64,000 nt of DNA, taken from the IMG/VR virus record IMGVR_UViG_2868946205_000003. One strand, given 5' to 3'. The notes under the pieces were generated by a model that ran no database searches, was not told the DNA's origin, and was given only the letters and a program-made list of their open reading frames with translations. Below, piece after piece: positions 56,022-63,202 of the stretch (its first letter is position 1; each line of letters opens with the position of its first letter). Source of the stretch: a virus (lineage: Duplodnaviria; Caudoviricetes). The translations under genes and the position numbers were made by a program.

Positions 56022-56200
56022 TAGTGGCAAGAGAGGGGGAAACACCAGTATGGCGGGGAAAAGAGCGACCTGTCTGGTGGTGGAACACCGGACAAGCCGT
56101 CAACACACAGATGTGGCCTGTGAGTCAACCGAGGCTCTCCCGTTCTCGAGAACCGGAAAAGCCTACCGTATTTTCATCCTGTGAAAAAGGCTTACAGATA

Positions 56201-56965
56201 ATGAAAGAGCAATCTTTGCCCATCGTCCCGTGGATTGGTGGCAAACGCCGTCTGGCCAAACACATCCTGCCGCTGTTTCCTGCTCATACCTGCTATGTAG
56301 AGCCGTTCTGCGGTGCGGCAGCGCTGTACTTTCTGAAGCACCCCAGCAAGGCTGAAGTCATTAACGATATCAATGGCGAACTGGTAAACCTGTATCGGGT
56401 GGTGAAACACCATCTGGAAGAGTTTGTACGGCAATTCAAGTGGGCGCTGGTCAGCCGTCAGATCTACAAATGGTTGCAGGCTGTTCCAGAAGAGACGCTG
56501 ACGGATATTCAGCGTGCCGCCCGGTTCTATTATCTGCAAAAACAGGCGTTCGGCGGCAAAGTAGAAGAACGCACGTTCGGTACGGCGACGACATCGCCGC
56601 CACGTTTTAACCTGCTGCGTATTGAGGAAGAACTGTCAATGGCCCACCTACGGTTATCCCGAACCGTAATTGAGCACCTTGGTTGGGCGGAGTGCATCCA
56701 GCGTTATGATCGCCCCCACACGCTGTTCTACTGCGACCCACCGTACTGGGGAACGGAAGGCTATGGCGTCGAGTTCGGGCTAGAAAACTATGTCCAGATG
56801 GCGCAATTGGCACGAGATATCAAAGGGAAAATGATTATCTCGGTGAACGATATACCAGAAATGCGACAGGCGTTTGAGGGATTGAATTTACAGAGTGTGG
56901 AGATCAATTACAGCCTGTCGGGAAAACCAGTTCCCCGGCGGGAACTGGTGATTTGTAATTTTTGA
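56201..56965 (+). CDS. DNA adenine methyltransferase (D12 class)
   Basis: PWIGGKRRLA, YVEPFCG, INDIN, DPPY. Confidence 0.94.
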   Translation: MKEQSLPIVPWIGGKRRLAKHILPLFPAHTCYVEPFCGAAALYFLKHPSKAEVINDINGELVNLYRVVKHHLEEFVRQFKWALVSRQIYKWLQAVPEETLTDIQRAARFYYLQKQAFGGKVEERTFGTATTSPPRFNLLRIEEELSMAHLRLSRTVIEHLGWAECIQRYDRPHTLFYCDPPYWGTEGYGVEFGLENYVQMAQLARDIKGKMIISVNDIPEMRQAFEGLNLQSVEINYSLSGKPVPRRELVICNF

Positions 56966-57002: not shown

Positions 57003-57440
57003 CTATGATAGCACCTTAATTATATTAAAAAGCCGTCTTCCAGTTCGCAGCAAACACATAACAGATGTGGTAACAATACCGATTAACACCGTTATAGCCA
57101 GTCCCTGAAACTTTGTATGCAACATCAGCCCAATTAAACATGTTAATACCAGTATCAACAACATTAGGCAGGTATCAAAAGCATCTGTCATTAGACGCCG
57201 ATAGTGCCCAGTCTTTTGCATATTCCTGAGCAAGGGCTTGTCCAGTAAGGAAACCAAAAGCGCAACAGCCGTTATAATAAATCCAAGCAACGTTGCAAAA
57301 ACACTAGCTAAGGTCGTCATCAAATTAGGGATCGCCGCCTCTGGCATGTGAGGCGATTTTTGCCAGTACAAGACCGCTATAGCAACGCCTATAGCCAGAT
57401 TAAACAATAGCCCCGGAATCCTCTGATCCAATATACGCAT
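57003..57440 (-). CDS. Four-TM membrane protein
   Basis: GGGAG RBS, overlaps the upstream gene, four hydrophobic segments. Confidence 0.82.
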   Translation of the reverse strand: MRILDQRIPGLLFNLAIGVAIAVLYWQKSPHMPEAAIPNLMTTLASVFATLLGFIITAVALLVSLLDKPLLRNMQKTGHYRRLMTDAFDTCLMLLILVLTCLIGLMLHTKFQGLAITVLIGIVTTSVMCLLRTGRRLFNIIKVLS

Positions 57441-58290
57441 TAATACTCTCCCGGTTTTCATCGTATGCCGTATCAATGAGGCGATACATTGTTCCTGCAG
57501 GAGGGAAACGAGCATCGGTTGGTATTGATTGTTTGGAGACAATCCGATCTGCTATCAGATCTATGGGATGAACAACACCATCAGCTTCAAACACTTCAAT
57601 CACTGCCTTCCTAGCTCCTAGATCAACCAGCTCCTGCATAGCAAATTTAATGCCCTGTTTGAGTCTGCCATCACTATCTCCACGTCTGGTATTAATCCCC
57701 ATTACAACTTGCATTGTATCCGCGCCAGCCGCGCCAAGTAATTGAAGCGTTTTTTGACTGAAATCCGTATCGGGATACAGTTCTGGGTTACGAGGACGAG
57801 GGAGCGTCAAAGTGAGTTTCTTCATGTTGACGTCACCTTTCATAAGCATAGCAATAGCTTCTTTCCCTAGCAGAGGTGCAGCTTTTACACTGGTTGAGAA
57901 AATTATCGATAAAAATGCAGTGAAACGGCTCATTCCCCCAGCCAAATGATTTCGGTGCCAACCAATAATATTGTGCTGTGAATAATATACAAAAAAGTTA
58001 CGTTCAATAATGCCTTCATCTTCTTCTAAAGGAATCGGGGATGAATGTTTCCCAGGAGCTCCTTTATCAGGGATATCAGAATTACGGAATTTCCTTACCT
58101 CACCTGCATAAGTGCCGTCATCTCGCTTTTTCAAAGCCCAGATTTCCCTTGTGCAGCCTTCCCGATCAGACGAACTGGGTGACGTTTTATCTATAGCAGA
58201 TTGAAATGCTGCATCAAGCGATGCCAGTCTTACAGATGGTTTAAATGACAACTGATAAAATTCAATTCGATAAGTTTTAACATCACTCAT
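57400..58290 (-). CDS. Soluble hypothetical protein (DUF6731/DUF4747-like)
   Basis: IPLEEDEGIIERNFFVY, PIDLIADRI (family recalled, unverified). Confidence 0.8.
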   Translation of the reverse strand: MSDVKTYRIEFYQLSFKPSVRLASLDAAFQSAIDKTSPSSSDREGCTREIWALKKRDDGTYAGEVRKFRNSDIPDKGAPGKHSSPIPLEEDEGIIERNFFVYYSQHNIIGWHRNHLAGGMSRFTAFLSIIFSTSVKAAPLLGKEAIAMLMKGDVNMKKLTLTLPRPRNPELYPDTDFSQKTLQLLGAAGADTMQVVMGINTRRGDSDGRLKQGIKFAMQELVDLGARKAVIEVFEADGVVHPIDLIADRIVSKQSIPTDARFPPAGTMYRLIDTAYDENRESINAYIGSEDSGAIV

Positions 58291-58420: not shown

Positions 58421-58813
58421 TCAATGTTTCATCACTACTGCCGCTAACTTTTCCGCTGTCTGTGGAGTTAAACCGCTATTTAACTGAGCAACGATGAGGC
58501 CGTTCTTCGATTGGTAAAGGTAAGGGCCTGCAAAGGCTTTGAGTGCATCAAAGTAGGCATAAATCGCATCACAGTATTCTTTCTTCTCACAGATAAAGAC
58601 TTGTCCACCTTTGGGGGAAACTTCTGAAAGAACAAAAGTAACATGCTCTTTGTAGCTGTTAGGTACAGGCGTTTTTACACTGCGATCTGGCGTTTGGATA
58701 TCAGTGACCGTGACACCTGTTTTTTGGAACTGATCCATAATGCTCTGTGTCGTAATAGCTTTATCGCCGCAACCTGCCAAAAGAAATACAACTGGTATTA
58801 ATAGTTTATGCAT
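58421..58813 (-). CDS. Lipoprotein
   Basis: Signal peptide with LAGC lipobox. Confidence 0.85.
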   Translation of the reverse strand: MHKLLIPVVFLLAGCGDKAITTQSIMDQFQKTGVTVTDIQTPDRSVKTPVPNSYKEHVTFVLSEVSPKGGQVFICEKKEYCDAIYAYFDALKAFAGPYLYQSKNGLIVAQLNSGLTPQTAEKLAAVVMKH

Positions 58814-58824
58814 AACCAATATCC

Positions 58825-59409
58825 TTATCTAAATAAAAAAGATGTAAAAAATCCTAAAAAGAAAATACCGATAAATACTTTAGGGTGAGCTTTTATAAGT
58901 TCTTGCCAATCCACTGCTTTAGGCTGTGTGGGGTTTGGCTGGCGTTGCCGCAATTCATCTCGGTCAAAATGGTCAAAAGCCACTTGAAGTTGTTCACGGG
59001 ATAAATCGTTGAGCGTTTTCGTACCAAATTTTTTCAGACAAAATCTATCGCGTTCTGTTGCGGTATCCACGGTTAATCGCAAGATTTCGCTGACTAATCG
59101 GCGGCACTCTTTTGCCAGCTTAGCCTCTGCCAGTCTATGTCGCAGATACGTCTCAGCTTTATGATATTTCTTGGTTGTAATGCCATTGATACTGTGAACA
59201 TCAATATGGGCATGAACGGCTCGCCACAGATCTTTCTTAGGCTCGCCGCTGGCAGTAACAAGGTCATCTAGCAATTGGTGCAGGCGATGACGCTGAGCCG
59301 GAAGTAGCGACTCATCATCTGTCGGGTTTTCACCTGAAGGGGGATGTATATTGATAATGTCTCTGGATGAGAACTGTCCCTGTGCAGTTCCATTAAATTC
59401 CTGCCGCAT
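58825..59409 (-). CDS. Membrane-anchored protein with N-terminal Q/N/G-rich motif
   Basis: AAGGAG RBS; C-terminal TM VFIGIFFLGFFTSFLF. Confidence 0.85.
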   Translation of the reverse strand: MRQEFNGTAQGQFSSRDIINIHPPSGENPTDDESLLPAQRHRLHQLLDDLVTASGEPKKDLWRAVHAHIDVHSINGITTKKYHKAETYLRHRLAEAKLAKECRRLVSEILRLTVDTATERDRFCLKKFGTKTLNDLSREQLQVAFDHFDRDELRQRQPNPTQPKAVDWQELIKAHPKVFIGIFFLGFFTSFLFR

Positions 59410-59441
59410 CCTATCTCCTTTATTACTGTGTGTTACTCGTT

Positions 59442-59873
59442 CTATTTATTTTTTTTATTACTGACCGCGCCATTATTAATAATCTGATTACCGGCAAATT
59501 GACCACTAATATCGCCATTGAATATCTGACTTGAACTTGTCGGTTGAGACGACGTACCTGCTGTTAATGCAGCCAAAACCGCAGCTTTCACTGCTAATGG
59601 TGCATTTCTGTAATGCTGTATCAGTTCTGACTCATCTTTAGTGATGCGATTCTCAACAGATGGCGGGTTACTGCCAGTAAGAATGAATTGCACGTTTGCA
59701 CCAGCCATTGCAAACAACATCAGAACCTCACCGCCAGGTACGGCTATACCACGCTCGTACTTGCTCCACATTTCACGAGAAACCCCGCATATATCTGCCA
59801 CCTCGCCTTGTTTCAGCGATAAGCGGGAACGTTCAGATTTGATACGGGGTGCAAAAAGAGAATCAAAGTTCAC
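59442..59873 (-). CDS. Prophage repressor (XRE HTH, no peptidase domain)
   Basis: RIKSERSRLSLKQGEVADICGVSREMWSKYERG; divergent from the early genes. Confidence 0.9.
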   Translation of the reverse strand: MNFDSLFAPRIKSERSRLSLKQGEVADICGVSREMWSKYERGIAVPGGEVLMLFAMAGANVQFILTGSNPPSVENRITKDESELIQHYRNAPLAVKAAVLAALTAGTSSQPTSSSQIFNGDISGQFAGNQIINNGAVSNKKNK

Positions 59874-61432: not shown

Positions 61433-63202
61433 ATGAGTGCCGCCCTGACAGAACGATTAGTAGCTGTAGCCCGCGCCGCACGGCAGGCCGGGCATGGCGA
61501 ACGCGGTGCCATCTATGACGCCGCCTGTATTGAACTGGGGCTATCTCGCGCCACGTTGCTACGCAAGTTAAAGGAGGTTGCCGTGACTGACAAACGCAAA
61601 AAACGTGCCGATGCCGGACAAAGCGCCTTGACGAGGGATGAAGCCGCCATGATTTCCGCCACATTGATGGAAGCAACCCGTAAAAACGGCAAGCGCTTGT
61701 ACTCCATCGCTGACGCAGTCGAAACACTACGGGCAAACGACATGATCGCTGCCGGGCGTATTGATGAAACCACGGGTGAATTTTATGCCCTGTCAGAGAC
61801 CGCTATCAGCCGCGCTCTGCGTAATTATGGCCTGCATCCCGATCAGTTGAGTCAGCCAGCACCCGTGACCGAGCTGGCCAGTCTGCACCCTAATCATGTG
61901 TGGGAAATCGACGCCTCACTTTGCACCCTTTATTACCTGAGCAACGGACATAAGGGCTTGCAGGTGATGGACAGCGCGAAGTTCTACAAGAACAAACCGG
62001 CCAATGTGGCACGTATCGCCAGTGACCGCGTTTGGAGCTATGAAATCACTGACCACACCAGCGGCTGGATCTACGTCGAGTATGTGATGGGCGCTGAATC
62101 TGGCGAAAACCTGTGCTCTGTTCTCATCAACGCCCTGCAAGAGCGCAGCGGCGCGGACGTGCTGCACGGCGTGCCTAAGTTGCTGTATCTCGACCCCGGT
62201 TCTGCCAACACCGCAAGCATGACAAAAAACCTGTGTCGTGCACTGGGTATCGATTTAAAGGCACATAAAGCCCATGCGGCACGCTCAACAGGCAGCGTTG
62301 AGAAGGCCCGCGACATCATCGAACGCAAACTGGAGCCGGGTCTGAAGTTCCAACCGGTTCATAGCCTGGAAGAGCTGAATGCGCTGGCTGTGAAATGGCG
62401 TTCTCACTTCAATGCTACCGCTGTTCATAGCCGCCACGGACAGACCCGTACCGATATCTGGCTGAAAATCACCGCCGAACAGCTAGTGAAAGCGCCGCCT
62501 ATTGAGGTTTGCCGCGAACTGGCCGTCGCTACACCGGAAGAGCGCAAGGTCAAACCGAAGCTGCGCGTGTCGTTCCGTGGCATTGAGTACGATGTGTCTA
62601 CCGTACCCGGTGTGATGGTCGGTGAGAAGTTGCTGATCACCCGCAATCCTTGGCGTACAGATGCCGCGCAAGTGGTGCTGACAGGTGAAGATGGCCACGA
62701 CACATTCTTCCTGATCGATGAAGTCACCAAAAATGAATTTGGCTTTGCCGACTCTGCCGCAGTGATAGGCGAAAACTACAAATCACACGCCGATACGCCA
62801 GCCCAAACCGCAGCGAAAGAAATTGAGCAGTTGGTGACGGGAACGGATAACGCGACGGATGCAGCAGCAGCACGTAAAGCGAAAGCGCTACCGTTCGGCG
62901 GCAAACTTGACCCATACAAACACATTGATGACACCACGTTACCTGCGTTTATGCCACGCCGTGGTACGGAATCTGATGTACGCAGCCCACGTATCGAACA
63001 GCGGCCTCTTACACATGTTGAAGCTGCCAAAGCGCTGCGTGAGCGGTTTGCAGCCCGCAACCAGACATGGACAGCCGGACACTTTCGCCAGTTGGTTCAG
63101 CTTTATCCTGCAGGAGTACAGGAAGAACAACTGGATGAGGCTATCGATGCACTAATGACGCCTGTTTCCGGCAATGTCATCAACATCGTCAACGGGAATT
63201 AA
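61433..63202 (+). CDS. DDE transposase (Mu A analogue)
   Basis: HPNHVWEIDAS, LYLDPGS, TGSVEK. Confidence 0.93.
   Translation: MSAALTERLVAVARAARQAGHGERGAIYDAACIELGLSRATLLRKLKEVAVTDKRKKRADAGQSALTRDEAAMISATLMEATRKNGKRLYSIADAVETLRANDMIAAGRIDETTGEFYALSETAISRALRNYGLHPDQLSQPAPVTELASLHPNHVWEIDASLCTLYYLSNGHKGLQVMDSAKFYKNKPANVARIASDRVWSYEITDHTSGWIYVEYVMGAESGENLCSVLINALQERSGADVLHGVPKLLYLDPGSANTASMTKNLCRALGIDLKAHKAHAARSTGSVEKARDIIERKLEPGLKFQPVHSLEELNALAVKWRSHFNATAVHSRHGQTRTDIWLKITAEQLVKAPPIEVCRELAVATPEERKVKPKLRVSFRGIEYDVSTVPGVMVGEKLLITRNPWRTDAAQVVLTGEDGHDTFFLIDEVTKNEFGFADSAAVIGENYKSHADTPAQTAAKEIEQLVTGTDNATDAAAARKAKALPFGGKLDPYKHIDDTTLPAFMPRRGTESDVRSPRIEQRPLTHVEAAKALRERFAARNQTWTAGHFRQLVQLYPAGVQEEQLDEAIDALMTPVSGNVINIVNGN

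Follow-up and report, generated by a model that had tools for sequence, protein, structure and literature searches.

The 64,000-nucleotide stretch of viral DNA analyzed here (the window; IMG/VR record IMGVR_UViG_2868946205_000003, Duplodnaviria, Caudoviricetes) encodes a small helix-turn-helix (HTH) repressor and, directly downstream, a membrane-anchored protein with a Flk_N domain (the partner). The two proteins share a peptide motif, or tag, of about 18 residues, located near the C-terminus of the repressor and at the N-terminus of the partner. The arrangement of an HTH repressor with a C-terminal tag, followed by a membrane protein with an N-terminal tag, is, to judge from the sequences compared, widespread and modular in temperate phages of the Pseudomonadota. 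It is reasonably likely that direct homotypic contact between the tags couples the repressor of this pair to the membrane protein and so sets the amount of free repressor; the shared peptide is probably the means by which the membrane protein retains or switches the repressor.

Both genes lie on the minus strand: the repressor gene (59442..59873, 143 amino acids, GTG start, as given in the list of open reading frames, ORFs) is separated from the partner gene (58825..59409, 194 amino acids) by a spacer of 32 nucleotides (59410..59441) that runs from its stop codon to the start of the partner, and an AAGGAG ribosome-binding site within this spacer, 7 nucleotides upstream, supports the partner start. 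The repressor motif (59475-59528, minus strand, residues 116-133, QIFNGDISGQFAGNQIIN) aligns without gaps to the partner motif (59350-59403, minus strand, residues 3-20, QEFNGTAQGQFSSRDIIN) with 10 identities in 18 positions, as a sequence-only reading of the window had claimed; when both proteins are shuffled (n = 300), the best identity between any two 18-mers is 5 to 8, and 0 of 300 shuffles reach 10. The linkers rich in S, T or P that the same reading had described are also present, TSSQPTSSS ahead of the repressor motif and the acidic, proline-rich HPPSGENPTDDES behind the partner motif. The motif itself is rich in G, N, Q and aliphatic residues, with an alternation of aliphatic and polar residues and glycines every 4-5 positions. 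The DNA of the two window motifs is identical at 29 of 54 positions and uses different codons for 6 of the 10 identical residues, and the likeness is therefore not the result of a recent duplication.

The tag and its pairing are conserved among related loci. Nine homologues of the partner (54-84% identical overall) have 15 of the first 21 residues invariant, and all 11 of the closest loci (4 from genomes of Pectobacterium, Brenneria and Dickeya, and 7 viral contigs) have an HTH gene with a matching tail directly upstream of the partner, the consensus of these tails being Q[IV]F[NH]G.[IV].GQ.AGN[QK]I[IV]N..NKKN[KR]. In the full set of 121 loci (the window, L001-L011, L020-L026, L044 and L049-L149), an upstream ORF of at least 100 amino acids was found at 120, giving 92 distinct pairs of tail and N-terminus, and the upstream proteins are HTH regulators (HTH_31 in 74 and HTH_3 in 63 of 97 distinct proteins). 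By ungapped BLOSUM62 comparison, 88 of the 92 pairs score at least 29 (versus 17 of 920 shuffles) and 80 score at least 40 (versus 0 of 920). All four low-scoring pairs have another gene between repressor and partner: a 114-residue gene, with a 107-residue ORF on the opposite strand, splits the repressor from the tagged partner at L075:1388-1979 and L095:1388-1979, and a third tagged membrane protein sits between the repressor and the Flk-like gene in L074 and L082, the tail of the L074 repressor (..RVAGHTFNE) being closer to this next gene (..RVAGHTYNE) than to the Flk-like gene (..RVAGRDFQE).

At least five classes of motif can be distinguished, in which the upstream tail changes together with the N-terminus of the partner. 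Class W, that of the window, has QIFNGDISGQFAGNQIIN in the repressor tail and QEFNGTAQGQFSSRDIIN at the partner N-terminus; class N pairs VSGQGNRVAGRDYNE with VSGRENRAAGRDFHE, class P pairs QIAGGNIY with QIAGRDIY, class Q pairs QQFNGPVGTVTTGDVVN with QQFHGAVEQVAAGDIKN, and class V pairs LGNVIKGNVTI with VGNVVSGDVTI. With one representative per class, the true pairing of W, N, P, Q and V is the single best of 120 permutations (219 versus at most 204), and in the five-class matrix the cognate score is the maximum of its row in 5 of 5 cases and of its column in 4 of 5. A search in the reverse direction, from C-terminal class-N motifs in 119 motif-seeded loci, found that a matching tag opens the next ORF in 28 of 33 distinct cases, the exceptions being 3 without a matching follower (at least one of which has a spacer beyond the search window) and 2 at contig ends. 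Paired occurrence and co-variation in homologues, the check proposed in the sequence-only reading, has thus given a strongly positive result, and the layout described there, a C-terminal motif upstream and an N-terminal motif adjacent downstream, is that of the 88 matching pairs and of the 28 reverse cases.

The tags are combined with a variety of DNA-binding domains and partner proteins. The W tail is common to three unrelated HTH types, and a heteroimmune repressor that is 31% identical to that of the window over residues 1-77 is 80% identical over residues 78-143; HTH domains 55-73% identical to that of the window can be joined to a W, N, P or V tail. Since similar HTH domains have different tails, the class of the tail goes with the partner and not with the DNA-binding domain. 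The 28 followers of class-N tails comprise 20 Flk_N-like proteins, 6 proteins with a Zn-ribbon and a transmembrane segment, and 2 others, and the class-V partners consist of Flk_N, a membrane helix (residues 186-204) and then a periplasmic domain of about 125 residues. The arrangement extends outside the Mu-like phages to E. coli strain 6409, where a class-N pair (tail ..VSGNGNRVAGRDYNEKK, N-terminus MEVNSSGDQNRTAGRDF..) adjoins the integrase of a P2-like prophage with annotations no more specific than 'helix-turn-helix domain-containing protein' and 'membrane protein'. When a class-N pair is compared with 5426 complete E. coli genomes, 528 have a distant DNA match, and coverage of the query stays below 80% in every match.

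The Zn-ribbon proteins (117-154 amino acids) have an N-terminal tag, a CPxC...CNHC pattern and, where counted by hydrophobicity, one or two membrane helices. Their genes come immediately after those of tail-bearing repressors, sometimes besides a Flk_N partner (L155:1844-2230, L190:1077-1508, L184:9455-9883 on the minus strand, L227:4164-4535, L230:2338-2712 on the minus strand, and L074:1526-1990), and the family has no NCBIfam or PADLOC match.

A chance likeness, or a functionless relic of local duplication or gene conversion, is very improbable and is excluded in practice. Segments that are rich in G, N and Q and resemble low-complexity sequence do raise chance similarity, and the adjacency of the genes makes duplication mechanistically easy, but no composition-preserving shuffle reaches the identity observed in the window, the 80 pairs scoring at least 40 have no counterpart among the 920 shuffles, and the pairing is kept in at least five diverged classes. 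Over all pairs, the motifs are 59% identical in nucleotide sequence (2653 of 4500), and identical residues share a codon in 361 of 858 cases (42%). Strong purifying selection on the partner motif is evident among the W-class loci from 6-8 synonymous versus 0-2 nonsynonymous codon differences in 18 codons. The similarity within pairs is kept at the protein level, not at the DNA level; recent DNA duplication or gene conversion was considered as a source of the pairs and ruled out by the 29/54 identity in the window together with the 361/858 shared codons.

Tags of this kind are characteristic of the phage-type relatives rather than of true Flk. Against 1.84 billion proteins, the partner profile has 111 representative matches at E ≤ 0.001, among them true Flk and a large number of phage-type proteins about 200 amino acids long. 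With N-termini sorted by their first four residues, and the threshold for a tag set at the 95th percentile of shuffles, a tag-like segment is present in 57 of 73 N-termini that are not of Flk type versus 4 of 37 that are. Genome searches seeded with the profile, with no motif pattern, found 12 phage-type loci, 11 of which have the pair. An order-wide genome search matched 31 of 401 genomes, mainly through chromosomal Flk, and a class-wide search gave 0 matches in 400 other genomes. Among 50,697 records of isolated phages, a relative of the partner is found only in Escherichia phage 520873 (two records), and a DNA search with the window returned only a match of its Ner region to phage PhiKM.

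The repressor, of XRE type, matches HTH_31 (27.6 bits, cut-off 27) and HTH_3 (24.4 bits, cut-off 23) in Pfam, its PHROG matches are repressor or regulator families, and its PADLOC matches are at the level of the HTH only (RmrA). Pfam at E ≤ 0.1 gives HTH families only and no peptidase S24 domain, in agreement with the earlier claim that this repressor lacks one. In the AlphaFold2 model (97-row alignment), an HTH domain (residues 3-66) is followed by helices at 79-90 and 93-107 and by a disordered tail (residues 108-143; 59445..59552, minus strand), in which the predicted local distance difference test score (pLDDT) is 37-48 over the blocks 111-143. The tail consists of the S/T/P linker, the motif and a basic end, NKKNK. 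A basic cluster follows the motif in most repressor tails (NKKNK, NENKK, TTRRRKIK, NKNTKRK, NKEKLKG), and some class-N tails end instead in ..HEKE or ..YHE.

The partner has the N-terminal motif, a disordered linker, a helical Flk_N domain and a C-terminal anchor. The domain is assigned to Flk_N (PF27202) by precomputed Pfam and Atlas annotation, the local copy of Pfam giving no match. The NCBIfam Flk model NF007987 matches residues 26-161 with an E value of 5.3e-14, and phrog_5825 matches the protein with an E value of 2e-51. Because the NCBIfam match has 52.3 bits against a cut-off of 353 despite the Flk_N domain, the partner is a phage relative of Flk, and not Flk itself. AlphaFold2 (43-row alignment) gives a mean pLDDT of 89.5, with residues 1-28 unstructured (pLDDT 53-62), an all-helical Flk_N domain at residues 37-156 (58942..59301, minus strand; pLDDT about 98) and a predicted helix at residues 176-193 (58831..58884, minus strand) for the hydrophobic anchor; both tags are thus predicted to be disordered beside confidently modeled domains. 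The anchor, which the sequence-only reading had recognized as a C-terminal transmembrane segment, has a Kyte-Doolittle mean of 2.38 over residues 178-193 with a 16-residue window and of just 1.55 with a 19-residue window. By analogy with Flk, from which the orientation is taken, the partner would be a cytoplasm-facing, tail-anchored membrane protein of the Flk_N family.

Chromosomal Flk (L027-L043, L045-L048) is matched twice in tandem by the phage-type profile in many genomes, and Flk therefore appears to be an internal duplication of a unit that is single in the phage proteins. PADLOC gives one weak match for the partner (PbeC, E value 0.0032). One PHROG family, phrog_17822 (267 amino acids), matches both residues 10-86 of the repressor (E value 1.5e-5) and residues 39-95 of the partner (E value 1.3e-4), which suggests a natural fusion of HTH and Flk_N; when longer proteins were screened with the tail region for such fusions, 0 of 193 candidates scored, which is weak evidence.

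Tags that are alike at the protein level, diverge together, and are independent of both HTH type and partner family are explained most simply by direct, class-specific contact. The tags would pair through a homotypic beta-strand or cross-beta contact to which each chain contributes about one solenoid rung, 18 residues being about the size of one rung of a beta-solenoid. Since the partners are nearly all membrane proteins and the tag is cytoplasmic, the repressor would be drawn by this contact to the inner membrane face, and capture there by the membrane protein would set the amount of free, active repressor in the lysogen. Both proteins are co-expressed in the lysogen, their genes being adjacent or, in other motif classes, overlapping by 4 nucleotides (gap of -3), and constitutive sequestration is therefore unlikely. 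As a matter of speculation, the contact could be a conditional switch to induction, or it could aid immunity by anchoring, stabilization or oligomerization of the repressor; a self-propagating, amyloid-like character of the tags is likewise speculative.

Several points weigh against direct tag-tag contact as the coupling. A constitutive sequestrator would defeat repression, and a conditional trigger is an assumption of the model. Motif-derived patterns supplied most of the loci, so the partner motif is there by construction and only the repressor tail counts as an independent observation in those loci. The related loci are also phylogenetically non-independent, and the permutation test concerns five classes only. 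The repressor motif is less constrained than that of the partner, with 1-7 nonsynonymous differences, mostly conservative, between loci with differing motifs. In one pair of the 12-locus, profile-seeded sample (G454/L270), the tail and the N-terminus, both rich in G, N, Q and V, are not significantly alike (ungapped score 15, gapped score 19, reached by 622 of 1000 shuffles).

Co-variation could also arise if the tags, rather than binding one another, were both ligands of a third surface, such as the partner's own domain, a conserved segment of the repressor, or a protease or chaperone of the host, with the partner tag acting as a decoy or competitor that might shield the repressor tail from degradation or expose it, because two peptides fitting one pocket would co-vary too; the C-terminal tail of the Mu repressor, for example, governs its sensitivity to ClpXP. 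A candidate surface of this kind is residues 35-96 of the partner (span 30-101), the first three helices of Flk_N, which in a wide VIA-align search superimpose on the C-terminal domains of NinB, Sak and Red-beta (Z 6.8-8.0, root-mean-square deviation 1.5-2.8 over 58-67 residues), that is, on domains that bind partners or peptides, such as the Red-beta C-terminal domain with its SSB peptide. The same region has weak PHROG matches to Ant-type anti-repressors. Z scores of 6.8-8.0 are within the common range for helical bundles, however, and the likeness is therefore a lead only; a Foldseek search of the Flk_N domain against PDB gave nothing at E ≤ 0.001. The tag is kept on unrelated families of partner, so the globular domain of the partner cannot be the common receptor, and the class of the tail is independent of the HTH type. 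The helix ahead of the tail (YR.APL.VKAA.LAALTAG) is identical in the W, N, P and V loci of the order Enterobacterales and hence has no class specificity, and the presence of several classes in one group of hosts (N in E. coli; P, W and N in the same order) argues against a fixed host receptor. Competition for a third surface is, on balance, distinctly unlikely.

Amyloid signaling of the BASS or HET-s type is a further way in which homotypic tags might act: a signal would convert the partner tag to a cross-beta form that templates the repressor tails, so that the repressor is irreversibly inactivated, with induction or abortive infection as the outcome. The layout equals that of the Bell/NLR and Bab/Agp pairs as described in the available parts of two preprints (10.1101/2024.11.07.622273; 10.1101/2020.01.06.895854), and the former also supplies, in the same available text, an experimental precedent from a prophage defense island of E. 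coli. The motifs, of about 18 residues, rich in G, N, Q and aliphatic residues and predicted to be disordered in the monomer, are more similar within pairs than between classes, and templating would provide the conditional, all-or-none trigger that the operon arrangement needs. Yet Pfam, NCBIfam and PADLOC identify in the repressor or the partner neither a sensor of NLR/STAND or TPR type nor a pore-forming effector, and the conserved charges (R, D and E in ..NRVAGRDY.E) and the basic end of the tail fit pairing of soluble strands. The signature of RHIM and BASS3 is missing as well: according to the available part of Dyrka et al. (10.1101/2020.01.06.895854), the core of RHIM, PP and BASS3 is G-phi-Q-phi-G, and the window motifs have GQFAG..NQIIN in the repressor and GQFSS..RDIIN in the partner. 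This signaling is, on present evidence, rather unlikely. Its fullest form, in which co-evolving, prion-like tags of Mu-like, P2-like and other phages let a membrane sensor of interchangeable family respond to a membrane or envelope signal by templating the repressor tail into an inactive cross-beta assembly, is equally a minority view.

The interpretation that accompanied the first recognition of the motif is accordingly retained in part. Its terminal-motif layout, its repressor without S24 and its membrane-anchored partner stand; the RHIM label is not supported, the G-phi-Q-phi-G core being absent from both motifs, and no NLR-type receptor and no cell-death effector is found among the domains of repressor and partner. 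Nor is there support for the lipoprotein, which that interpretation had tentatively included in the system. A lipoprotein gene does follow the partner, as stated (58421..58819, minus strand, 132 amino acids, with the lipobox LLAGC), but related loci hold other genes or none in its place: in the closest loci the partner is followed by a 132-residue lipoprotein, a 267-277-residue membrane protein, a 312-320-residue lipoprotein or nothing, and elsewhere by lipoproteins or by secreted, membrane or cytoplasmic proteins of unrelated kinds, or again by nothing. Because the content of this slot varies, the lipoprotein of the window is regarded as cargo, and its candidacy as a conserved member of the pair is rejected in view of the variable downstream gene in both closest and wider loci. 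A rough lipobox criterion was positive for 24 of 98 distinct downstream genes and overlooks others, for example L004, L024 and L044.

The 312-320-residue lipoprotein follows the W-class partner in Dickeya-type loci, and the same type is present in L008, L010 and L011. The periplasmic domain of the V-class partner (L139:2613-2987) is 34% identical to the N-terminal part of the 312-residue lipoprotein (L004:4593-5531; E value 3e-21), and this relation of fusion and split suggests that the 312-320-residue family works with the partner. The window lipoprotein, compared with the same V-class periplasmic domain, has no similarity to it (E value 1.8).

The surrounding genes appear to form the immunity region of a putative BcepMu-like transposable prophage. 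A Ner-like HTH gene and a winged-helix regulator are encoded on the plus strand, divergent from the repressor, and beyond the repressor lies a transposase with an rve domain (61433-63202, plus strand; rve 27.1 bits, below the 32.6-bit cut-off). A terminase gene, a homologue of Mu gp27 (Phage_Mu_Gp27, 188.6 bits), an SLT lysis gene and a holin are on the minus strand, and a Dam methylase gene occupies the window ORF 56024-56965 on the plus strand. The repressor operon continues on the minus strand with a DUF6731-like protein (57400..58290, 296 amino acids; Pfam 25.9 bits, just below the 27-bit cut-off; phrog_7651, E value 2.5e-22) and a multi-pass membrane protein (within 57003..57542, up to 179 amino acids), whose ORF overlaps the DUF6731 gene and has four or five hydrophobic segments. 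The same DUF6731 gene is found in L007, with other cargo at that place in L001 and L006, and the DUF6731 protein and the membrane protein of the window may be a prophage-borne accessory or defense pair; PADLOC has no match for the lipoprotein, the DUF6731 protein or the 179-residue membrane protein. Short contigs were obtained from 3 of 4 runs (RNA libraries), with 0 reads in the raw-read run; one of 270 nucleotides (59245-59514, 1 mismatch) spans the partner start and extends into the repressor tail, and one of 185 nucleotides (59242-59426, 0 mismatches) spans the partner start, such contigs being neither a demonstration nor a proof of transcription.

Prophages very commonly encode small XRE repressors that have no cleavage domain. 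The shared tag is a testable handle on how such repressors are switched off, owing to its class-specific co-variation and its modularity across phage types and partner families. If the tags bind one another, they would represent a new link between membrane and lysogeny decision; if each templates the other, amyloid signaling would extend from cell-death effectors to gene regulation, and a prion-like switch, if real, would make the decision to induce independent of RecA and possibly heritable. The tag classes would also provide orthogonal pairs of peptides for engineering.

Compared with known systems, the repressor differs from self-cleaving repressors of the LexA and CI type in that the C-terminal S24 domain is missing and the last 36 residues are predicted to be disordered. 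Membrane proteins that bind regulators at the inner membrane face and limit the free regulator include PtsG, which binds Mlc, and RseA, which binds sigma-E; these are contacts between folded domains, not through a shared terminal peptide, and none of these regulators is known to be a phage repressor with a co-varying tag. Flk, a tail-anchored flagellar regulator with a cytoplasmic body as far as its accessible description goes, resembles the partner in its Flk_N domain and in having a cytoplasmic domain with a C-terminal anchor. The partner is phage-encoded, has 194 amino acids and a single copy of the domain, whereas chromosomal Flk has 335-430 amino acids and two copies; the partner has an N-terminal tag, whereas few Flk-type N-termini (the 4 of 37 above) reach the tag threshold. 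Fungal HET-s/NWD2 and RHIM, in which a rung of one chain templates another, share with the pair homotypic terminal motifs of about 20 residues, as far as the accessible accounts of them describe, and differ from it in the G-phi-Q-phi-G or I-Q-I-G core, which is missing here, and in their cell-death output, of which none is evident here.

The closest resemblance is to BASS, of which several families have similar motifs at the C-terminus and N-terminus of adjacent-gene products in the available text of 10.1101/2020.01.06.895854, and of which the Bab/Agp system (BASS11) from E. coli prophages has been shown experimentally to signal through amyloid in the available text of 10.1101/2024.11.07.622273. 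Searches of the openly accessible literature found no link of amyloid or terminal-motif signaling to HTH or prophage repressors, although the supplements of these two preprints could hold related motifs: 'helix-turn-helix' has 0 occurrences in the amyloid-signaling literature examined, the terms HTH, phage and repressor are absent from PMC12261475, and HTH and repressor are absent from the Bab/Agp preprint (10.1101/2024.11.07.622273). Within the portions of these sources that are available, BASS and the pair have in common terminal motifs in adjacent genes, resemblance within pairs, several families, and an occurrence in prophages of Enterobacteria. They differ in that the C-terminal carrier here is a repressor with HTH_31/HTH_3 and not a membrane-targeting death domain (HeLo, Bell, Bab), that a small membrane protein (Flk_N, or Zn-ribbon with a transmembrane segment), not an NLR or TPR sensor, carries the N-terminal motif, and that the pair lies inside an immunity operon. 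Because the carriers are different and the RHIM/BASS3 signature is missing, the pair is not filed as a member of BASS, BASS11 having been compared by description only; no published description of the pair was found, in a search outside which subscription journals lay, and it is a fresh variant of the principle of paired terminal motifs.

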